Source: a virus (Duplodnaviria; Caudoviricetes). From it: DNA of 38,298 nt. A model generated the notes under the pieces. That model did not search any database and was not told the DNA's origin. It worked only from the letters and a program-made list of their open reading frames with translations. Below are positions 3,871 to 34,231 of this stretch, piece by piece. Within the stretch, counting starts at the first letter, position 1. Each line of letters begins with the position of its first letter. A program made the position numbers and the translations under genes. The stretch is from positions 1 through 38,298 of the IMG/VR virus record IMGVR_UViG_3300043039_000107. One strand, given 5' to 3'.

Positions 3871-3896
3871 CGATGAAAAGTTGGTTACTTTCAAGA

Positions 3897-3916
3897 TTAA
3901 GGGTTAATTCAACGGG
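3897..3916 (-). promoter_or_regulatory. putative phage-RNAP promoter, motif A copy 1
   Basis: CCCGTTGAATTAACCCTTAA (minus); identical 20-mer at 17640-17659 and 17/18 match at 25083-25100; all intergenic and upstream of genes. Confidence 0.7.
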
Positions 3917-4161
3917 GTTGTCGGTGGTTGTAGAATCTTCACCCACCCCCTCTCAAAATTCAGCCAAGAACATGCCAGACTGGTCCGATGACAATGCTGC
4001 CTTGTGGCCCCTGAAAGATGGCCCTGGATGATCGTCGCGAGGGTTCTTGGGCGAATTTAGTGTAGCTTCTGTTTACATCTCAGATTTCTATATTACCTCC
4101 TTTTCTGGCTTATATAAAATTTCAGCCTTTTGAATAATACCTATTAGGTATCTCTCTATCT

Positions 4162-10611: not shown

Positions 10612-12270
10612 TTATAATACGTGGAATTCTTCAGATACAGGAGCTTTACAAGCTTGTAACCTTCCGGTTTCATAGATGTATCTAGCCCCTTTAACATTAC
10701 CTGTCAAGCCAGTATAACGACATTTTAAAACTTGCATAAGAATAGTATTTCTTTCTACTTCATCTACTGCAATCATATTCCTAGCAAATGCGACAATGTC
10801 AAAGGATATCTGTTTAATGGAACCTGAACCTCTTATATCATCAATTGATGGTAACTTACCTTCCTCAAATGTTTTACCACCACCTGGTGCTTTTCTGAGA
10901 TGTGATATCAAACCAATCCAAACAGGATATCGCTTAACCAATCTCAAGAGGTCATTCATAATTTTATCTTGTGCTTCATTTCCCCGAAGATCTTCAACGC
11001 CTTCTGAAACAAGGATTGTTATATGATCTATATAAATATATTTACAACCCATTAAGCACATGTATTCTAATTGGTCGACTAAACTGTTGTCAGTTATAGA
11101 ACCGTGATGATCAAGTAGAAGGACTTTATCTTCACCAAACACTTGATCGAAGCCAATTTTTAGTTCGTCTAAAGGTATTTCTTCTTTTGCTGGATTGCGA
11201 TTGATTGCCATACCAGCTAATTTTCTAGCTGTTTCTGGTGGCCCTTCTTCTAGTGCAATTATTCCAACTTTTTCATCATTTTCAAGGTTACACTTTACAT
11301 CATCTAAAATACATTCACGAATAATTGTACTCTTACCCGATCCAGTTCCTGAGATGAACAATGTAATTTCACCAAGCCTCTTACCTTTTGTCTTGGTATT
11401 AACTCCTTCTAAACATTCTGGGAAAGCAACAGAGGCTATTGAATTGTACTCCTCTAAACTCTCCCATAATTTTTCTTTACCAATAATACCCGCAGGTACA
11501 TAAGGAGCAGCATCAAATATTACTTGATTTAACCTATCGCTACCATGTTTTACGAGTATATCATTTGGATCATTTTCAGGTAGTTTTGCTATTTTAACTT
11601 TATCGAAACCAATGATACGTATGGCTTCTGATTTGGCTTTTTCACCTGCCTCGTCTTCATCCATACATAAGACAACTTCTTTAAAAGATCTAAGCCAATC
11701 TCGATTCTCTAAAAGAGACTTAGTCATTACAGATGATGATAATGCTACTACCGGGTATATCTTACCCCATCGATCAAGTGAAGCTTGAGCAACACTTAAT
11801 GCATCAATTTCGCCCTCTGTAACAACAACACGTCTACCACCTCCGTTAAATTTATCAATACCAAATAGATTAGACGACTTATTAGCCCATACAAAATTCT
11901 TTGGAAGTTTTCTTATTTTAAAAGCTGTCCCATTATCATAAGGATAATAATGTGTATCTATCTCACCGCTCTCATTGTAAGAAACTTTAACTCCGAAAAA
12001 TTCTGTAACAGTCTTCGTAATGTCTCTCTCACGAAACCCTCTTATCGGTAATTCTTTAATTTCTAATATTGATAATTTCTTATTTAAAGACGGTATTTTT
12101 GGAACTTTTGGTGCCTTGTTTACAGGTTCAAAATCTTCATCGGCACCTTTTGGGAACCACTTTTGACATGAGAAACAAAATGATGTACCATCCTCATAAA
12201 TCTGCCTTGCATCAGATGAGCCACAATCAGGGTCTATGCAGGGTTGGTGAGCTTTTACGATTTTACCCAT
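10612..12270 (-). CDS. T7 gp4-like primase-helicase
   Basis: N-terminal Zn finger (C..DC...CFSC), TOPRIM TEGEIDA and DxD, Walker A SGTGSGKS, IDHI, RGSGSIKQ. Confidence 0.95.
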   Translation of the reverse strand: MGKIVKAHQPCIDPDCGSSDARQIYEDGTSFCFSCQKWFPKGADEDFEPVNKAPKVPKIPSLNKKLSILEIKELPIRGFRERDITKTVTEFFGVKVSYNESGEIDTHYYPYDNGTAFKIRKLPKNFVWANKSSNLFGIDKFNGGGRRVVVTEGEIDALSVAQASLDRWGKIYPVVALSSSVMTKSLLENRDWLRSFKEVVLCMDEDEAGEKAKSEAIRIIGFDKVKIAKLPENDPNDILVKHGSDRLNQVIFDAAPYVPAGIIGKEKLWESLEEYNSIASVAFPECLEGVNTKTKGKRLGEITLFISGTGSGKSTIIRECILDDVKCNLENDEKVGIIALEEGPPETARKLAGMAINRNPAKEEIPLDELKIGFDQVFGEDKVLLLDHHGSITDNSLVDQLEYMCLMGCKYIYIDHITILVSEGVEDLRGNEAQDKIMNDLLRLVKRYPVWIGLISHLRKAPGGGKTFEEGKLPSIDDIRGSGSIKQISFDIVAFARNMIAVDEVERNTILMQVLKCRYTGLTGNVKGARYIYETGRLQACKAPVSEEFHVL

Positions 12271-17601: not shown

Positions 17602-17639
17602 ACGTATAAATCCTTTAAAAATTTAATCAATAAGATCGG

Positions 17640-17659
17640 TTAAGGGTTAATTCAACGGG
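17640..17659 (-). promoter_or_regulatory. putative phage-RNAP promoter, motif A copy 2
   Basis: Identical to 3897-3916; 38 nt upstream of the SSB start. Confidence 0.72.
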
Positions 17660-17672
17660 TTCAAGGTAAATT

Positions 17673-22970: not shown

Positions 22971-23180
22971 TTAAAAACCTAAGTACCTTCGATAGACTTG
23001 TTTACTAAGCTCATTTTTACAGTCTTCTGCAACTTGTAGACATTCATTTGCAGCTTCCCAAGTTTTCTTAAGTTGCATTCTTTGTCTTTGAATAGTAAGA
23101 TGTTGTACCAAAGATAACCCTGCGAATGAGATTGCAATTAAGAGTAACACAAAGTTAGTAATTTTTAATTTCTTTTCCAT
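22971..23180 (-). CDS. membrane-anchored coiled-coil protein
   Basis: N-terminal TM segment; GGAGG RBS; TAATG overlap. Confidence 0.65.
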   Translation of the reverse strand: MEKKLKITNFVLLLIAISFAGLSLVQHLTIQRQRMQLKKTWEAANECLQVAEDCKNELSKQVYRRYLGF

Positions 23181-23512
23181 TATTTCCTCCCTGTGATAGA
23201 GTCTAGTTCAGCTAAGTTACCAAGTACTGCAGCGATATCTTGGTTATAGGCTGCTTGATAAAGCCGATCGATTACTTGATGGACATCTTCAAATAATTTT
23301 CTCTTACATAAAGCCTGAACACCTTCAAATGTACTGTCGAAGGCATCTCGTGAACTTTTAAATTTAATTCCAAGAGTAACCCGATATTGATATTCTACGG
23401 TATCCCTGGCGTGATAATCCGGTCTTGAATATAATTTAGCATCGAGGACGTCTGGCGGACATATTTCAGTAAATCGTATTCCAGTACTTATGAGCTTAAA
23501 CTCTGTTGGCAT
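23180..23512 (-). CDS. hypothetical protein
   Basis: 110-aa ORF; AGGGAG RBS. Confidence 0.75.
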   Translation of the reverse strand: MPTEFKLISTGIRFTEICPPDVLDAKLYSRPDYHARDTVEYQYRVTLGIKFKSSRDAFDSTFEGVQALCKRKLFEDVHQVIDRLYQAAYNQDIAAVLGNLAELDSITGRK

Positions 23513-23563: not shown

Positions 23564-23791
23564 TTAAGCTTCCTCGTAGTCAACAATAACATGATTATTA
23601 TCGATCTGGCAATGAAGCAAAGTACCATCCTCAAGTTCCTCTAAATATTCACGCTGGAGAATATCAGAGGGGCGCAGCTCAACAGGAATATTAAAACCAT
23701 GAGCAAACACTTTACCATTACGAACTTCAGCAGTACAAACAATTGCCAACTCCTTCGAGGTAGACGCAAACGGTATTGTCATGGTGGGCAA
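23564..23791 (-). CDS. hypothetical protein, start uncertain
   Basis: 75-aa ORF; no clear RBS at the TTG or ATG; an internal AAGGAG precedes an in-frame ATT. Confidence 0.55.
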   Translation of the reverse strand: MPTMTIPFASTSKELAIVCTAEVRNGKVFAHGFNIPVELRPSDILQREYLEELEDGTLLHCQIDNNHVIVDYEEA

Positions 23792-23807
23792 ATGCCATTA
23801 AAAAATC

Positions 23808-23873
23808 GGCTAACCAGTCGTTGCACGCGGACTGGCCAAACTGCGGCCAGTCCGGTGAACTCAGTCGTTATAT
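23808..23873 (+). mobile_element. integron attC-like recombination site (59-base element), single, no integrase in window
   Basis: R'' GGCTAAC, 5-nt spacer, L'' GTT[G]CAC[G]CGGACTGGCC, loop AAACTGC, GGCCAGTCCG-GTGAAC L', 6-nt spacer, R' GTTATAT; two extrahelical bases. Confidence 0.8.
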
Positions 23874-24026
23874 GTCGTAAAATTCATGGCTCGTGTATTT
23901 GCACGGGATTACCCCATGCAAAACGTGCAGGAAGGCAAGCACAGCCTGACGCACGGCCTCCCTTAATGCTTTTTTTGCTACGGCAAAATTCGCCATCATG
24001 TGCTTAAAATAGGTCATCTTATACAT
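23868..24026 (-). CDS. 52-aa protein whose stop codon lies inside the attC R' box
   Basis: AGGAGG RBS; MYKMTYFKHMMANFAVAKKALREAVRQAVLAFLHVLHGVIPCKYTSHEFYDI; TYFxH...HxxHGxxP loosely recalls DUF6356. Confidence 0.7.
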   Translation of the reverse strand: MYKMTYFKHMMANFAVAKKALREAVRQAVLAFLHVLHGVIPCKYTSHEFYDI

Positions 24027-24063
24027 GATTGCCTCCTATATTAGAGTTATATTTTCTTGCTTC

Positions 24064-24088
24064 CATATAAGATACCATATTTTCCGCA
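24064..24088 (-). promoter_or_regulatory. putative early promoter, motif B copy 2
   Basis: TGCG-N9-GTATCTTATATG at the lysis/early boundary, 37 nt upstream of the first small gene. Confidence 0.6.
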
Positions 24089-24988: not shown

Positions 24989-25082
24989 AGATATCCATTC
25001 CTTTTAATTAATACTATAGTTAATATAACTATAAATAATACCTGAGAGTAGGTATAGATTAGGGTAATATAGGGGACAGCTC

Positions 25083-25100
25083 AAGGGTTAATTTAACGGG
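25083..25100 (-). promoter_or_regulatory. putative phage-RNAP promoter, motif A copy 3
   Basis: CCCGTTAAATTAACCCTT, one mismatch to the other copies; upstream of the lysis genes. Confidence 0.65.
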
Positions 25101-25280
25101 TTTGTCGAGCCGTTATCGTCCAGTATCCTTATAATTGAAAACTATAAAGAAGAAAAGACTTTGAGGTGCCCAAGAGAGACTCTGCCCGTCCCCTGAGGGT
25201 GATACCATCCGGGCAGTGGCGATCGTTCCACCACCGCCCAAGACGGCCCAAATTTCACCATTTCTGGCGGTCGAAGTTGC

Positions 25281-25747: not shown

Positions 25748-28700
25748 TTACGCTATCGCAATCCAGTTAACTACACCTGCATTATCCAACACCTGTGCAC
25801 TCGACAATACAAAAGAAGCATTTGCCAAGTTTACCGTATTCACAGCGGTACTATTATTAGAGGCAAGTTTACGCGTATAGATAGTGGCATGTAAATTTCG
25901 TGCTCTAATTTTTGCTTGGCCACTTACGTTTGAGAATGTAGCAGAAGCTTCAGCTTTATAACCGATAGAGGTTAGATAGTTTGTTGTCTCAAAAGAATGA
26001 GATCGATAATCAGGATAACTTGATGCATCATCATTATATGACTCATTCACGTCTGGATCAGATGCAGAAAGACAAGAAAGATAATCTAACTGAGTACCTG
26101 TAGGTAGAGATACTTTAGCTGTAGATCGATAATGAAAGCAATATAGCTTCCAAGCTAACTCAAAATCATATACAACACGATATATCTCATAAGGTGAAGT
26201 CGGTGTATAGGCGGCTAGCGTCATAAACTCTTCGTCAGAATCATTTACTTGAGTAGTACTTGACGAATAAGCGTTGGCATAAGCTTCTGCAAATAATGAC
26301 AGATTAGATCTTTCTACTGTCGGCCCTTCTTCATAAGATGTACCACCGGCTTCAAAGGTACCACCCATATCAGCCCATACTATACCCAAATAGTAATCAT
26401 AGGTATCACTAGTTAGAGTTCCTGTTTCAATAAACAAGGTATCGGCTGTCAAATCATCACCATTTGCAACTACAGTGGAAACCGAATCATATGGGTCTGA
26501 AGAACCATTCGGTCTATAATAAAGGGTAACTGTAGCTTTCCGATAATAATAATCAGGAACAGTCCCGGTACCACGAATACTGTTTATTGAACCATTTATC
26601 GAAATCTTCGTAGTATTTGCAGGAGTTGTGTTTACATTTGTGGTATAGTTTGAAGCTCCTTGGTAATAATCCGATAAAGGTGTTGTCGCTGCACCACTGT
26701 CTAATGTAAGCATACATTTAGGTGTGAATGAATACGTTCCATCCCCATTATCTATAACACCTTCATGGTATACTTCCCATCGTTGATTTTGATTCGCATA
26801 ATTCGCATCGTATGCTCGAAGGCTACTTAGAGATACTAATACTTTTGGAATTCTATCAAAATTTTGAAGAGTAACCTCATTATTACTCGTAGCTTGGCCC
26901 GTTAGTATTTGTTTAAGATACTTATATGCTTCATAATTCTTATAAAATACTAAATCCCCTTGTGTAAGCAAGCTATATGTGCCAGGCGTACCTGTCTCAG
27001 ATCTTACATCTGTACCGAGAGTACCCACAGTAATAGCATCTGCATTAAGATACTTGACATAGGTAGCAAAGTTTGATTCATTAATCTCATCAACAGTTGC
27101 AAAAGCCCCTTGATTCACGATAGAGGCAGCCACATTGTCGCCGGTAATATCTGCACCCTGCTCACACCAACCTTCAGTATAATTTTTAGCTGCAGCTTCA
27201 GCAGCATCAGCTTTAGCTTGAGCATCTGCAATAGCCCTAGCTTCTTCATCAGACACAATGCCATCTGCATAAGCATTTGCTTCAGTCTTTTTAAGATCAG
27301 CATAAGCATTTGCAGCAGCTGTTGCAGCTAACTCGGCAGCATCTGCGACACCATCAGCATAAGCCTGTGCCTCTACCTTTCTGGCATCAGCATATGCTTC
27401 AGCGGCAGCAATAGCGGCTAATTCAGCATCATCCGCTACACCATCTGCGTATGCTTCTACAGTAGTTTGCAATGCAACATTAGCTGCATCTGTATAAGCT
27501 TGAGCAGTATCTATTGCAGTTTGTTCAGACTCAGTGACAATCCCATCCGCATAAGCTTTAGCGGTTGTTTCTGCTAACATTGCTTTAGCATCTGAATAGT
27601 CTTGAATTGCTGTCTCAAGTACGGCAGAAATACTAGCACTTACTTCAGCAACAAGTGTTTCTAATGCTGCATAGTATGTTTCTGCAAAATCAACTAAAAG
27701 ACCATCGGAGATATCTACAGATGTTTCTGTATCAGACCAGACACCAATAGCCACTAGGTAAGACTCAAATTGATCTTTACTATTAACTACATCAAAGTAT
27801 ATAGTTTCAGATGTATCGACGCCATTAAGTGTTGCATAAGACAAAAGTGAGCTATGCTCAGATTCTAATTGATCCCATTGAGACCTTATTGTAGCTTTAT
27901 CAGCTGCCGTAAGAGTATCATCTGCAATCATATCATCAAACAACGAGAGTGCTTGAGTTGCATCTGCAGCAACACCATCTACTGTACCCGAAAGTGTATC
28001 AATCATTGATTGTGCACTTGCCAAGGCAGCAGCGGCTGAGCCTACAGGATCACTTGCGGCTTTAGCTGCAGCTTCAGCTGCATCAGCCTTTGCTTGAGCA
28101 TCTGCTATCGCTCTAATCTCTTCGTCTGATACGATACCATCGGCATAAGCTAATGCTTCAGTCTTCCTTGCATCAGCATAAGCCTGGGCACTTGCTATGG
28201 CAGCCGTTTCTGCATCATCAGCTACACCATCCGCATATGCTTCTATAGCAGTTTGTAAAACAACATCTGCAGCATCTGCATAAGCTTGAGCAGTATCTAT
28301 TGCATTCTGTTCAGCAGCTGTTACGATGCCATCTGCATAGGCGTTTGATGTTGTTTCAGCTAACATTGCTTTGGCTTCAGAATATTCTTCAGCGGCATCT
28401 TGAATTACGGCACTAATAGCTCCCGAAACTTCAGCGGTAAGTGTTTCGACAGCATTATAATAATTAGACGAAAGAGTAGATAAGGTATTATCAGTTTCAA
28501 AAGAATTATCTGGATCGGACCAACCACCGGCAGCTATTAAATAATTCTCAAGTGCAGTTTTTGACAACTCTAAATCAGTGTAGACAGTTTCAGTTGTATC
28601 AATACCATTAACTGAAGCATAGTATAGTAACCCAAAATACTCAGATTCAAATTGCGACCATTGTGACCTCAATGTAGCTTTATCAAGAGGTGACAGTGTA

Positions 28701-31700
28701 TTATCATCTGAAAGCTCTGCTATACTATTCATTGCGCTTGCTACATTCAAAGTAGCAGTATTTGCAATAGTTTCCACATCATCTATAAGAGCTTCTGCGG
28801 ATGCTAAGGCAGCATTAGCTTTTGTGGTTGCATCAGCTGTTTGAACTGAAGTCCAATCGTCAGCAGAATAAGATTGCTGAGAAGTTTTAGCAGTATAACA
28901 CCGCTTAATGTCGGTCCCTGTATCCCATAGATCACCAATATCATAGGGCACAGTAGGCGTAGCTACAAAGACTCTACGTTTAGAGTCTGCAACATCTAGT
29001 GCATTTGATGCCAAAGAAATTGCTTCAGTAATATCTGAATCTGTAACTAAAACCCAAACATAATTTGGATCATCAAAAGTGAAACGATAACAATAACCTG
29101 TATCACCATCGTAATATAAGTCACCTAGATGTGCAATTTTTAGAGCTTCAGTAGTCCAGTCTACAGCCGGTGCATTAGAAAGTGTAGGAATACCTGTTAA
29201 GAACCATGATGTAATATTACCATCAATCTGCGCCTGAATTGCTGCAAGGTCTGCATCATATGTAACAGCATCAACAAAATTAGCATCTACATAAGCTTTA
29301 GCAGCAGCTTCAGCGGCATCTGCTTTCGCTTGAGCGTCTGCTATGGCTCGTGTTTCCTCTGCATCTACTATACCATCTGCATAAGCTAGTGCTTCAGTCT
29401 TTTTAAGATCAGAATAAGCTTGAGCAGCATCTATAGCAGCCTGTTCAGCTGTTGATACAATACCATCTGCATAAGCTAGTGCTTCAGTCTTTTTAAGATC
29501 AGAATAAGCTTGAGCAGCTACAATAGCCGCTTGTTCAGCATCAGAAGCCGCACCATCAGCATAAGCTTGAGCCTCTGTTTTCTTGAGATCGGCATAAGCA
29601 TTTGCACTAGCAATAGCTGCTGTTTCAGCTGCATCAGCCACACCATCTGAGTATGCTTCTAGAGTAACCTGGAGAGCAGTATCAGCAGCATCAGAATAAG
29701 CTTGGGCAGTATCTATAGCAGTTTGTTCTGCAGTTGTTACGATACCATCTGCATAAGCTTTTGCAGTTGTTTCTGCAAGCAATGCTTGAGCTTCTGCATA
29801 GACTTCGCGAGCTTCTTGAATTTCAGCGCCTATTTCTTCAGCAGCAGCATTAAGGATATCTTGCAAAGATTGGGTATAGTTATCTGTTAATGTCTCAAAA
29901 GTATCGTCTGTTAAGACAAAAGCCACATCAGGTTCAGACCAAACACCGATTGAGATGAGATATGATTGTAATTTCAAATAAGCTAAATTGAAATCTTGAT
30001 AAACAGATTCTACAGCTGTTACACCATTTAAAATAGCATAATTAATTACATCATTATATTCTTTTGTTACGGTTTCCCATTGAGCTCTCAGTTTAGCTTT
30101 GTCAAATGATGTAATAACACCATCATCAGCCATTTGATCTACACGTGTAATTATTTCTGTTGTATCTGCTACAAGAGTTGCCGCTGCAACACCTGCTACA
30201 GCAGCTGTATCCGCAGAGATATTTTCAGAAGTAACATCTGCATTATCATCTGGTTTATTTCCATCATCTTGGATATTAGACCATACAGGTGACGATGCGT
30301 CGAGATTAAAGGCTCCATCAATTAAGAGTGTGCCGTCAGGCGCATATATCTCTATATCTGTACCAATAATCTTACCATCTTTTGTAATACGCCATCCTGT
30401 ACAAGATTCGCCTATAACAAGATTAAAGTTATTACTTTGAATAAGATTACCGATATTTTCATTCTCTACTACCGCCTTACCAAGTACAGCAGTCCCAATT
30501 GCAGCATTAGCCTGAGCATTCCACGCTATCTCAAAGCTTGTACCTAAATTAGTAGCGATTTGCCATACATGGTTTACAGGATCAAGGATACCTTTAAAGG
30601 TTTCCTTATCATTCACATGGAGATAATTATTAGGATTAGTATCTTTACTCCAATACACATATGCATCAGTGGTTGATCCTGCTGCAATTATATATTCAAT
30701 ACCTTGATACCAAACCGAGTGTTCATTCCATGAAAGTGTTCCTGCATCTACTGAGAAACTATCACCTTCTAGAACAGGAACAGTATATGCCTTACTAAAA
30801 CCTTCTGCAAAGTCTATCGCATTTGTAGTAGATGAAGATGTATCAATAGTAAACTCGAATGCACTTGAATAACTTACATTACCATTACCAAAGGCATCGT
30901 ATGCACCAACCTTAAAATAGTAAGTACCATCCGACGTTAAATTAATTGGCAGGCTATTGCTGTTATTTCCAACAATTGCATGTAGTGTTTCAGTTGATGG
31001 TATGAAATCTGATGTCTGTGATACATGAATTTCATATCCTTTTAGAGCTACTTCATCGACAGGCGTCCAATACAACTCAGCAGTACCGAAAGAAACATTT
31101 GCACCAAGGCCAACAACTTGTGCCGCTTGATTATTCACAGGAGATATTTGAGTAGGTGATCCTACATCACCATCTGTATCAACAGAATGAACTAATACAT
31201 CGAACTCTCGCAGTGGACCACCAGTGATACCAAGATTCTTAGCAAATGTAAATTCAAATACAGTATTCTTGCCAGTTGTCTCTGAATATAATACATTAGC
31301 TGGAATCTTCTCAGCATCTTTAGCATATACTTCTATCAGATAATGTTTCAACCAATCAAGATTTTCCCATATACCTGTTGGAGCATCCCATTCGATAATA
31401 CAATCATGATCAACAAAAGTAACGCCATCACCTGTTGAATTTTGTACTTTTAAATTTTCCACACCAACATTCATGTATGGAATAGATGAATAGAAAATAT
31501 CTACAGCTGCAGAATAAGCTATAGTATTCTCAATATATTGGACTTTGATTGTTTTAGATGTCGTATCAGTAAAACTATTCAGAACTAGTGAAGTCCCATT
31601 TTCACCCTCTTGCAATACACCATCAACATACCATGTGATCTCAGGTGAAACAAAATCATTCGAGATTGCATTTATTGTGATTGTTTCAGGGGTGATATTA

Positions 31701-34231
31701 CCTGGAGTTACTTCTTTAAATTGATTAGTGTCTACAATTAATGTTAAACTTCTATCCCAAAAGTTAGGAAGAAGTGTTGCTGTAGTTTCACTAGTATACT
31801 GCATCTTAGATTTAGCACCAGAATCTGAATAAGCTTGTACAGCAAAGATCGCAGACGGTGCTTCTAACGCAGGTAAAATAAAGAAAGGTTCCGTAGTTCG
31901 ACCTATCTCAGTAAATAATGGGAGATTAGTGTCTGTCTCACGAGGATCACCTGCAAGATGCGCATATACAATATATCCTGCAATAGTTTCATCGCTAACT
32001 GGATCCCAAGTAAGTTTACCAGACGAATTATAAATATTTATCGAGTCAGTTGAATATACAAGATTTTGGGGACGTGAAATAAAAGATTGATAGAGACTTC
32101 TTGGCCGAATATACTCATCATCAACTATATTCCATGCTAATTGAGTATAATCGAATCTTTCACCATTAACCTCACAAGTTTTGTCTTCATCTACTTTTAC
32201 ACTATTTACTTTAATGTAAAGTGGATTCTCAGGTGAACCAATTCCCACACGAGAACTTACTAACTTAATGAAGTCACCTGGCTCTAGATATTTATCACGT
32301 AAGACATATTTAAACTTAATTGTAAAAGCAGACCGGCTAGTTCGTACAGTTTCTTCTGCTTTAGCTAGTGCATGGTAGTAGTCTGTGATACCTTCAGCAA
32401 ATATCTCAGTCTCCATCTCAATATAACTATCTTCTTCAAGCATTTCTGAATAGACAGTGTCATCGAGATTCTTAACAATAAAGCTGTCATAATTAGGTTC
32501 ACGAGTAGTCCAGAGATACATACCACCTTGACTAATTGCTGCTGCCGCACATTTCTTCTCAGGATCTGTACTTGTATTGTGAATGACAATATCAATTTGG
32601 TAAACTTTATCAGCTACAACATCCCCAAGATTGACATCAGCAGATGAAGGCGCGCTGGTATAATCTGTAACATTATTTTGCGTTACTTCTTCTTGAGCGG
32701 CAACATCTGTAATAGTGACACTAACAATATCACCACCGTATTCAAGTTTACAAGTACCTGTATTTTCTTTTCGTACTACAAATTGATATGAGAGAGTTGC
32801 ATCATCAGTACCGTCCCAGACACCGAAAGATTCCTTAAATTGACCCAGAGCAGTATCGCCCCAAGAGCCAGTTTGAAGTCTGTAATAGGAACCACCAACA
32901 CCTTCAAAGTATGTCTTATTATACTTAGGTGGCCATGAGACAGAGTCTTCTTTGAATTCTTCACATTCATTATGATACTTTATAGTACAAAAATTTAATC
33001 GATCACTAGCACTTGGCCAAGAGATTTCAATATCTTGTTCTAGGCAGAGATCATCATCAGTAATCTCAATTACATTTTCAATTACATCATTAGATGAAGG
33101 ATACTGAAGTGAAAGTTTATACTTACCACCAGACCAAACTAATCGGGCATCACCCATTGTAGCAAGGATTGCCTCAACATTTTCACGAATAGGTTTGGTT
33201 GTATCAACAATCAGATTACACTCATAAAGAGGGATATCACGTTGAGTAATATAGCGTGTTTCATCAAAGGGCTGGTAGAACCAGCCGCCTACTGCTGCAT
33301 CTTGCTGTACAATCGTATCACATACTGCTGCAGCTGCTTCAAAAGATGCTAGGTCAATCTCTGATACAGGTATTCCCTTCCCTGAGATATTGTCCATCAA
33401 ATAGTCTAAGAGACACCACGCAGGGTTATTAGAATATGCAAATTCTGTACTTAAGACACCGCCGACAACTGTTCTTACCAACTTACCTTCAATCAGAAAC
33501 TGAACATCTGGAACAGAATTAAATTGAGGATCATCTCTATCCAGGCGTACAACCATTGATGCATAAGCCATATCATCAAAAGTTGCTTTCTGTCTTTCTG
33601 AGAAGTTTACGCCTGCAATAGCATCAGCGGTACCACCATTATTATGAACATCGATACGGAAAGCAGCCTTAGGGTGTCTAAAATTGTCCTCATAAGTACC
33701 GATATCATCATCTTTTAATGACCTTGATTCATCAATGACTACATCGTAACAATTATGAATTGGCCCTTGACATAAAGCTTGCTGTACAAAAAGGAATTCA
33801 TGGCGCTTACCGTCAAGATTTCTACTTAAGAGACCACCGTCACTCCCTGAGTATGTATGCTCAACCGTCTTAATTGTAGGACGTCTTACCCCAAGAGAAT
33901 CATATTCAGCATTATCATAATCCCATTCAAATGTAGTAAAAGTTCCAGATTGTCTTTGACGCGGACCCGCCTGTAGAACTTTATCTGCATTTGATTCAGT
34001 GTATTTAAATTTATTCCTAGATTTATGAAATACACGAACGCCACCAACCTTTGCTCTACCATACACCAGTGGTAGATTACTTGGTTCACCTTCAATCGGT
34101 ATTTCATAGCCCTTGCGAGCATCAGCTGCCTCTTTAGCTTTTTTCTTTGCCTTTTTAGCCTGTTTCATTTGATAGGCAACTGAGGCAGCAACGAGAACCA
34201 TCTGAATTACAAAACCAACTACTGAACCCAT
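25748..34231 (-). CDS. giant tail tip / central fibre (host-specificity protein J-like), 2827 aa
   Basis: LPLVYG..KVGG, NNPAWCLLDYL and YECN motifs of tail-tip proteins; FN3-like domains; long Ala-rich repeats; follows Dit and hub genes. Confidence 0.88.
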   Translation of the reverse strand: MGSVVGFVIQMVLVAASVAYQMKQAKKAKKKAKEAADARKGYEIPIEGEPSNLPLVYGRAKVGGVRVFHKSRNKFKYTESNADKVLQAGPRQRQSGTFTTFEWDYDNAEYDSLGVRRPTIKTVEHTYSGSDGGLLSRNLDGKRHEFLFVQQALCQGPIHNCYDVVIDESRSLKDDDIGTYEDNFRHPKAAFRIDVHNNGGTADAIAGVNFSERQKATFDDMAYASMVVRLDRDDPQFNSVPDVQFLIEGKLVRTVVGGVLSTEFAYSNNPAWCLLDYLMDNISGKGIPVSEIDLASFEAAAAVCDTIVQQDAAVGGWFYQPFDETRYITQRDIPLYECNLIVDTTKPIRENVEAILATMGDARLVWSGGKYKLSLQYPSSNDVIENVIEITDDDLCLEQDIEISWPSASDRLNFCTIKYHNECEEFKEDSVSWPPKYNKTYFEGVGGSYYRLQTGSWGDTALGQFKESFGVWDGTDDATLSYQFVVRKENTGTCKLEYGGDIVSVTITDVAAQEEVTQNNVTDYTSAPSSADVNLGDVVADKVYQIDIVIHNTSTDPEKKCAAAAISQGGMYLWTTREPNYDSFIVKNLDDTVYSEMLEEDSYIEMETEIFAEGITDYYHALAKAEETVRTSRSAFTIKFKYVLRDKYLEPGDFIKLVSSRVGIGSPENPLYIKVNSVKVDEDKTCEVNGERFDYTQLAWNIVDDEYIRPRSLYQSFISRPQNLVYSTDSINIYNSSGKLTWDPVSDETIAGYIVYAHLAGDPRETDTNLPLFTEIGRTTEPFFILPALEAPSAIFAVQAYSDSGAKSKMQYTSETTATLLPNFWDRSLTLIVDTNQFKEVTPGNITPETITINAISNDFVSPEITWYVDGVLQEGENGTSLVLNSFTDTTSKTIKVQYIENTIAYSAAVDIFYSSIPYMNVGVENLKVQNSTGDGVTFVDHDCIIEWDAPTGIWENLDWLKHYLIEVYAKDAEKIPANVLYSETTGKNTVFEFTFAKNLGITGGPLREFDVLVHSVDTDGDVGSPTQISPVNNQAAQVVGLGANVSFGTAELYWTPVDEVALKGYEIHVSQTSDFIPSTETLHAIVGNNSNSLPINLTSDGTYYFKVGAYDAFGNGNVSYSSAFEFTIDTSSSTTNAIDFAEGFSKAYTVPVLEGDSFSVDAGTLSWNEHSVWYQGIEYIIAAGSTTDAYVYWSKDTNPNNYLHVNDKETFKGILDPVNHVWQIATNLGTSFEIAWNAQANAAIGTAVLGKAVVENENIGNLIQSNNFNLVIGESCTGWRITKDGKIIGTDIEIYAPDGTLLIDGAFNLDASSPVWSNIQDDGNKPDDNADVTSENISADTAAVAGVAAATLVADTTEIITRVDQMADDGVITSFDKAKLRAQWETVTKEYNDVINYAILNGVTAVESVYQDFNLAYLKLQSYLISIGVWSEPDVAFVLTDDTFETLTDNYTQSLQDILNAAAEEIGAEIQEAREVYAEAQALLAETTAKAYADGIVTTAEQTAIDTAQAYSDAADTALQVTLEAYSDGVADAAETAAIASANAYADLKKTEAQAYADGAASDAEQAAIVAAQAYSDLKKTEALAYADGIVSTAEQAAIDAAQAYSDLKKTEALAYADGIVDAEETRAIADAQAKADAAEAAAKAYVDANFVDAVTYDADLAAIQAQIDGNITSWFLTGIPTLSNAPAVDWTTEALKIAHLGDLYYDGDTGYCYRFTFDDPNYVWVLVTDSDITEAISLASNALDVADSKRRVFVATPTVPYDIGDLWDTGTDIKRCYTAKTSQQSYSADDWTSVQTADATTKANAALASAEALIDDVETIANTATLNVASAMNSIAELSDDNTLSPLDKATLRSQWSQFESEYFGLLYYASVNGIDTTETVYTDLELSKTALENYLIAAGGWSDPDNSFETDNTLSTLSSNYYNAVETLTAEVSGAISAVIQDAAEEYSEAKAMLAETTSNAYADGIVTAAEQNAIDTAQAYADAADVVLQTAIEAYADGVADDAETAAIASAQAYADARKTEALAYADGIVSDEEIRAIADAQAKADAAEAAAKAASDPVGSAAAALASAQSMIDTLSGTVDGVAADATQALSLFDDMIADDTLTAADKATIRSQWDQLESEHSSLLSYATLNGVDTSETIYFDVVNSKDQFESYLVAIGVWSDTETSVDISDGLLVDFAETYYAALETLVAEVSASISAVLETAIQDYSDAKAMLAETTAKAYADGIVTESEQTAIDTAQAYTDAANVALQTTVEAYADGVADDAELAAIAAAEAYADARKVEAQAYADGVADAAELAATAAANAYADLKKTEANAYADGIVSDEEARAIADAQAKADAAEAAAKNYTEGWCEQGADITGDNVAASIVNQGAFATVDEINESNFATYVKYLNADAITVGTLGTDVRSETGTPGTYSLLTQGDLVFYKNYEAYKYLKQILTGQATSNNEVTLQNFDRIPKVLVSLSSLRAYDANYANQNQRWEVYHEGVIDNGDGTYSFTPKCMLTLDSGAATTPLSDYYQGASNYTTNVNTTPANTTKISINGSINSIRGTGTVPDYYYRKATVTLYYRPNGSSDPYDSVSTVVANGDDLTADTLFIETGTLTSDTYDYYLGIVWADMGGTFEAGGTSYEEGPTVERSNLSLFAEAYANAYSSSTTQVNDSDEEFMTLAAYTPTSPYEIYRVVYDFELAWKLYCFHYRSTAKVSLPTGTQLDYLSCLSASDPDVNESYNDDASSYPDYRSHSFETTNYLTSIGYKAEASATFSNVSGQAKIRARNLHATIYTRKLASNNSTAVNTVNLANASFVLSSAQVLDNAGVVNWIAIA
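27180..30130 (-). repeat. intragenic repeats: AYxD coiled-coil units and three DD..DKA.LR.QW domains
   Basis: 59-bp identical segments at 29370-29428 and 29460-29518 (90-bp period); domain copies near 30100, 28680 and 27900. Confidence 0.85.

Follow-up and report, generated by a model that had tools for sequence, protein, structure and literature searches.

How does a single integron attC-like site come to lie in a phage genome with no integrase, and does the phage use it to gain or shuffle genes through a host IntI acting in trans, as the initial annotation of this locus suggested? We analyzed a linear viral contig (IMG/VR record IMGVR_UViG_3300043039_000107; the window is its whole 38,298-nucleotide stretch) that is ~56% complete. 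Its T7-type RNA polymerase, replication, and siphovirus-type tail genes are all encoded on the minus strand. The polymerase finds its best cultured match in roseophage DSS3_VP1 (35% over 89%); DSS3_VP1 and roseophage DSS3_PM1, the closest known counterparts of the backbone, are too remote for the likeness to identify either the phage or its host. The site, attC1, is flanked by the endolysin on one side and the early genes on the other. The features of the locus are as follows.

23564 to 23742, minus strand: interrupted phage early gene, codons ~3 to 60, with its start codon at 24024-24026
23739 to 23807, minus strand: cassette A remnant, a cut piece of a bottom-strand gene, with the left insert end at 23739-23743
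23808 to 23873, plus (top) strand, minus denoting the bottom strand, the expected folded substrate for IntI cleavage: attC1, crossover at 23867/23868
23851, plus strand: extra T, private to this phage by alignments and folds
23868 to 24023, plus strand: cassette B body, own attC absent here, truncated and ending 1 to 6 bases before the cleavage point of cassette B's R'' box
23868 to 24026, minus strand: gene B, 52 codons, the phage ATG and the cassette's 49- to 50-codon gene in frame, with the stop inside the attC1 R' box
24032 to 24036, minus strand: phage ribosome-binding site GGAGG by sequence, now serving gene B and at the same position before the 60-amino-acid (aa) gene of the closest relative
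24064 to 24088, minus strand: conserved promoter-like motif, putatively functional, at the head of the early region

Anatomy and model score of attC1

We read attC1 base by base and found exactly the 66-bp layout that had been described. The R'' box (23808-23814) and a 5-nt spacer are followed by L'' from 23820, with unpaired G residues at 23823 and 23827, a 10-bp stem (23828-23837/23845-23854) closed by a 7-nt loop, L' to 23860, a 6-nt spacer, and the R' box (23867-23873). The element thus has the R'' and R' boxes with the conserved AAC and GTT, L''/L' pairing, an extrahelical base in L'', and the 5- and 6-base spacers of an attC site. The R'' and R' 7-mers recur in IntI-linked sites (L125, L132, and L134; L129). 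Spacer lengths and the extra base in L'' assign the plus orientation to the top strand, and the layout is that of a near-matching site in a bacterial array (L014) whose genes are on the top strand. Folding of the 66 bp gave a z score of about -3.6 for both strands, with equally good shuffles in 0/200 and 1/200 cases. A geometry scan of the window returned attC1 as the single match with a stem requirement and two matches without it.

We built a covariance model for attC sites from regions adjoining intI at 20 loci of one bacterial class, in which the geometry scan printed 53 matches, duplicates and chance included. The training set was reduced to 25 nonredundant sites that were ≤81 bases long, lay on the expected strand, and lacked the central motif of the window. 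With this purpose-built model, which is not that of IntegronFinder, attC1 scored 33.3 bits on the minus (bottom) strand (E = 1.8e-6, a rough calibration), and the other two matches in the 38,298 bases scored 12.8 and 7.5 bits. Sites of six bacterial arrays scored 18 to 65 bits, training sites included. Model score and anatomy together support the classification of the 66-bp element as an attC site, a classification made at the level of sequence and predicted structure.

A profile search for integron integrases found no match to IntI or any other tyrosine recombinase in the contig and nothing in the closest whole relative, G002 (98% complete); the same profile also detects ordinary tyrosine recombinases, as it did in 14/14 control genomes. 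The description of a single attC site without an integrase therefore holds for the window. An attC scan of relatives was negative for 22 loci from 19 related records, of which 5 records had shown cover of the lysis-to-early junction, and for 4 whole records. A 102-aa plus-strand open reading frame (ORF) across attC1 had no family match, and we took it as a shadow frame.

A 280-bp insert in a phage early gene

The closest whole relative shows the locus without attC1. Its corresponding locus, L001, is 79 to 82% identical to the window in nucleotides around the tail and lysis genes and has no insert; the promoter-like motif and ribosome-binding site run directly into a 60-aa gene, with neither hairpin nor gene B. 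From residue 19 onward, window ORF 23564-23791 shows 51% identity over 57 aa with this intact gene; the gene interrupted in the window is likely the first early gene of the phage. When 280 bases were removed in silico, we obtained a gapless 60-codon frame with 30 to 31/60 residues identical to the L001 gene, so no net phage sequence was lost. We found no near-identical empty allele, and the insert ends are therefore fixed only to ~5 bases; either of the two best placements has one mismatch with the donors. The promoter-like motif at 24064-24088 is identical in L001 (71/71 bases), occurs in 1 to 3 copies in the early region of 11/11 relatives examined, and was not picked up by a sigma-70 consensus scan. 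The motif may help to identify the host.

The insert spans ~280 bp (about 23739 to 24023) and consists of the tail of cassette A, attC1, and the body of cassette B, with 48% GC versus 37% on each flank. We mapped its ends by comparison with contigs from 8 of 24 listed sequencing runs. At the left end, contigs of 8/8 runs match the window from 23739 rightwards and carry unlike sequence leftwards. At the right end, contigs of 7/8 runs follow the window as far as 24018-24023, where they enter the start of a second attC site, the one that lies behind cassette B in two other records, L143 and L144. Contigs of run X1, which may be the window's own source sample, bridge the left end (record 1, no differences) and attC1 with the right end (record 7, no differences and no gaps). 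The phage flanks had no contig cover in runs X9, X13, X15, and X17, and we did not count these as evidence.

In the R'' box of cassette B, the right end stops before the AA|C cleavage point by 1 to 6 bases, and the left end falls in the middle of a gene, so the insert is not a clean IntI product. Base 24019 differs from 3/3 donor copies. The position of the right end within this R'' box is nevertheless suspicious as a hint of IntI involvement. Outside contigs of this phage, we saw none in which cassette A, attC1, and cassette B are contiguous, and the existence of a donor array is thus a deduction; a related attC site precedes cassette B in runs X2 and X3.

These comparisons bear on whether the hairpin is an attC site at all. 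A phage RNA element (an RNase III site, terminator, or stabilizer) or a chance palindrome would agree with its location on the transcribed strand, flanked by early genes, and with the perfect stem that the extra base creates; for these reasons attC1 may have a secondary RNA role. As an account of its origin this explanation is refuted by the absence of the element from relatives and by its mapped foreign source. Terminator and sigma-70 scans found nothing at attC1, which has no T tail; the two weak Rfam matches are both far below the gathering score; and the attC model score and the exchange of partners at G|TT described below also count against it. We regard it as highly improbable. It had been allowed that the element might prove invariant in all relatives and act as a terminator; relatives lack it, and the scan did not call it as a terminator.

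The slot behind the early promoter motif is hypervariable, and close strains in runs X2, X3, and X4 (~99% identical over the endolysin) switch sequence at 24052. Other features of the backbone were apparent. A ~20-base motif occurs three times on the minus strand (3894-3923, 17637-17666, and 25078-25107), is found also in 10/11 relatives examined, and is likely the promoter of the phage's own RNA polymerase. The RNA polymerase gene of L001 is split (532 + 203 aa) at ~11030-11860 by an insert with a 198-aa ORF, probably an intron or homing element. A 2,827-aa tail protein (25748-34231, minus strand) contains long Ala/Asp-rich repeats at 27170-29790. A 110-aa ORF (23180-23512, minus strand) had no tblastn match in relatives, and by eye L001 seems to have only a short remnant there.

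Cassettes A and B and related sequences in phages

Most donor contigs have 155 more bases at 23799/23800 of cassette A, and run X17 also has the short form. We found no matching cassette start (GTTAGCC or TTAGCC) within 8 kb to the left of attC1, so the window holds no whole cassette A; the remnant is too short for a protein search. The cassette A pattern was absent from viral contigs, and its carrier may therefore be a bacterium.

Cassette B is 96 to 99% identical in three other records, two of them viral. It matches L144 at 157/159 and L143 at 164/170 positions, and a whole attC site follows it in both. L143 is a complete 91.6-kb phage (100% complete) with no IntI and only one attC match, and L144 is a metagenome contig in which three attC sites form an array, interspersed with small genes of phage families; the neighbors of cassette B in both match phage families. 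The first 37 codons are also present in L151. A blastn search of the insert against cultured phages and plasmids returned no match. At 4274-6198 of L143, cassette B lies beside tRNA-like sequences and an IS605-family tnpB, near the phage end and behind a half attC site.

Cassette B begins with the six bases that follow G23867, and these complement the R'' box of B as found in L143, L144, and L151. The poor pairing of the R'' and R' boxes of attC1, which had been attributed to recombination with another site, is accounted for in this way: the R' bases belong to the start of cassette B, whose partner is the R'' box of B itself. At least six different sequences precede cassette B, most breaking at 23864-23867, and at least six follow attC1-type sites; taken together, most breaks fall at 23864-23874, a mobile boundary with exchange at G|TT. 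Because its attC site is lost, cassette B could not be excised as a cassette here.

Gene B encodes a small His-rich protein with 19 homologues at E ≤ 0.001 and an invariant Y/H/N/H/H/P/T/H pattern, and judged by this conservation it is a real small family. Likeness to DUF6356 is distant (E = 0.3 for the window gene, and above the cutoff in 1 of the 19 homologues). We ruled out that gene B, with its stop in the box, belongs to an ordinary top-strand cassette by the spacer and extra-base geometry of attC1; the initial annotation had missed the position of the cassette genes on the bottom strand. In one 141-aa protein (P0027, considered with P0001 and P0026), a 71-aa protein family is fused to gene B, and the connecting linker matches the N-terminal extension seen in P0001. 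P0027 is apparently read through an attC site on the bottom strand, and cassette order may create fusions.

The attC1 core is present in 8 other viral contigs in 4 distinct contexts, with 53 to 58 of 59 bases identical. Each of these contigs has a different gene before the core and a different sequence after it, and the partners change at or near G|TT (23867/23868). We found no IntI in 5/5 tested records that bear the core, two of them complete, and none in the 10 other viral records tested overall. The swapping of partners at or near G|TT in records without IntI indicates that the integrase is supplied from outside somewhere in the pool.

In phage-type arrays the genes are on the bottom strand, opposite to those of bacterial integrons. 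A bottom-strand ORF with a ribosome-binding site just after R'' was present at 11/20 phage-type sites versus 0/14 bacterial sites (Fisher P = 0.0007), a tally that uses a crude ORF rule and hand-picked sites, several from the same locus and thus not independent. Five more viral records without an integrase (L005, L006, L007, L156, and L157) have 2 to 4 attC sites between small genes. There appears to be a gene-cassette pool common to phages. In a literature search that most subscription papers lay outside, we found no paper on inverted cassettes common to phages, and the accessible part of PMC8618304 makes no statement on them.

We considered whether the fragment was instead copied from a bacterial chromosomal integron with inverted cassettes, with phages as occasional recipients. 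Sedentary chromosomal integrons typically have near-identical attC sites in front of many different genes (according to the portion of PMC9892861 available), donor pieces occur at high depth in several runs, and cassette A is missing from viral contigs. Against such a source, a scan of 185,579 species representatives, one genome per species and with arrays that assemble poorly, gave 11 matches to the general motif and the attC1 core in 0/11, though the pattern would catch this allele; the core is in 8 viral contigs, and the neighbors of cassette B in L143 and L144 are of phage families. Among the 11 genome matches, L014 is a shown cassette array with intI on another contig of that genome; L008, L010/L011, L017, and L018 are attC-like by eye; and the remainder look like chance. 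The unpublished genomes G044, G146, and G301 support none of the claims made here. We consider a bacterial integron an unlikely source.

Condition of attC1 and origin of the fragment

The extra T at 23851 pairs with A23831, so the bottom strand loses its extrahelical T. The extra T is absent from 8/8 other aligned sites, from 8/8 viral contigs with the core, and from nonphage contigs of the runs compared, and a search of viral contigs for the window allele gave no match. The distal T of the bottom strand is present in at least 90% of the 25 training sites and unpaired in 8/8 other aligned sites, and the window lacks this feature. With the extra base, the stem is perfectly paired and gains ~3.4 kcal/mol of stability as DNA.

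Canonical attC sites such as the VCR2/1 studied by Bouvier et al. in 2009 (PMC2727003), insofar as the accessible text describes them, resemble attC1 in the conserved AAC and GTT, the unpaired central spacer, and the extrahelical bases on the R''-L'' arm. The sister alleles have three extrahelical bases at 4-base steps, like G16, T20, and T24 of VCR. The sites differ in the bases themselves, which on the bottom strand are C, C, and T in the sister alleles and only C and C in the window, and in the direction of the cassette genes, which face the other way. According to the same text, in attC × attI recombination of VCR inversion of the distal T costs 3.6-fold and removal of all three unpaired bases costs 6.2-fold, and in attC × attC recombination removal of all three costs >100-fold. 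Since the T is not essential for recombination there, we count its absence as a derived loss, not as a failed definition, and the attC × attI figures predict a mild loss of function. By analogy with VCR, we predict that attC1 retains recombination activity at a level somewhat below that of its sister alleles. With no second attC site, it could accept cassettes but not excise them. Decay of attC sites in phages does happen, as the R' GTT is lost in the sister alleles of L152 (3980-4044) and L153. Changed R' GTT sequences in six phage sister alleles (L152, L153, L154, L155, L158, and L159) mark likely dead sites.

These properties bear on how far the phage itself may use attC1. If the phage keeps the site as an active landing pad, host IntI would add or swap cassettes behind the early promoter. 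The intact GTT/AAC core and L boxes, the position directly behind the conserved promoter-like motif, the divergence of close strains at 24052 in a highly variable locus, and the recombination by IntI1 of 5/6 phage attC sites tested by Qi et al. (PMC9892861, from the part accessible) would all suit such a role. The site is single, though, and none was found in the related loci and whole records scanned; no contig of the 8 runs, contigs being prone to drop rare variants, joins the phage left flank to another cassette; the extrahelical T is privately lost; and sister alleles L152 and L153 lack GTT. We find this role improbable. The suggestion of a host IntI acting in trans is thus upheld in part: changes of partner near G|TT among records without IntI agree with it, but use of attC1 by this phage is not borne out, as cassette A is cut mid-gene, cassette B has no attC, no relative scanned has an attC site, and one unpaired base is lost.

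The insert, its ends to within ~5 bases, the donors of its parts, the gene orientation, and the frame are shown by comparison of sequences. We think it probable that attC1 is a passenger in a 280-base fragment of an inverted-cassette array circulating among unrelated phages, and that gene B is likely the selected part. IntI would have made the A/B junction at G|TT in the donor array, as the partner changes suggest. Sequence comparison places the fragment of cassette A tail, attC1, and cassette B body inside the likely first early gene, only a few bases from its start and without net loss of phage bases, and this puts gene B in frame behind the phage ribosome-binding site and likely promoter. 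For this last reason gene B, not attC1, is likely to have been selected. We infer that the donor was a phage and that gene B is expressed and selected.

The fragment may have been captured in a single illegitimate insertion, or IntI may have inserted it and trimming come afterwards; we hold the two about even. The illegitimate route requires the fewest steps. The IntI route, with a G|TT target and later loss of the attC site of B and most of cassette A, also fits the right end, where base 24019 departs from the donors, but the left end needs further changes. A more extended reading, which we put forward tentatively, is that phages of oil fields and similar habitats that lack an integrase share bottom-strand cassettes with near-identical attC sites, shuffled by host IntI. 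The locus would then be an IntI insertion of two cassettes at the start of the first early gene, with the attC site of B removed, attC1 decaying, and the gene fixed under the early promoter; TT at 24019-24020, unlike the sequence in all three donor copies, would represent what the phage contributed to the G|TT target.

We return to the passenger fragment to compare the locus with published systems. With one site in the window it lacks the two or more clustered attC sites of a CALIN, and with no intI match it is not a complete integron. SALINs were defined in bacteria by Loot et al., whose accessible text describes G|WT targets, imprecise excision, attC deletion, and cassette domestication. From that text, the locus resembles a SALIN in having one attC site with no integrase nearby (in a contig that is 56% complete, and with no IntI in the whole relative either), insertion into a gene, and cargo behind a resident promoter. 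It differs in that a SALIN is a whole cassette at a G|WT attG site in a bacterial genome, and here the attC site is in a phage, in the middle of a two-cassette fragment. No whole cassette with its own attC lies at an attG site: cassette A is cut, cassette B has no attC, and the ends are not G|WT crossovers. The locus works like a SALIN yet fails the whole-cassette feature, and it is not a CALIN.

In 2023, Qi et al. found 17 CALINs in 10,705 phage genomes with a screen that required at least two sites and described TJE1 and PH101 as having typical cassette structure (PMC9892861, in the portion available). The window resembles those phages, as described there, in that the attC sites are in virulent phages without an integrase. 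Compared with the CALINs of that portion, this locus has one site and bottom-strand genes, its empty counterpart is mapped, and its cassette and attC site recur in unrelated phages.

Published work documents attC sites in phages and the recombination of some of these by IntI1, but its accessible portion gives no before-and-after case (PMC9892861). Because attC1 looks like a remnant, the interest of this one locus is limited. What this locus contributes is a before-and-after case, in which an empty relative, mapped ends, and near-identical donor copies from unrelated phages trace a cassette gene reaching a phage early operon. The window and sister alleles also form a natural pair of attC sites with and without one extrahelical base. 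These results point to cassettes as a route of gene exchange between phages without integrases.
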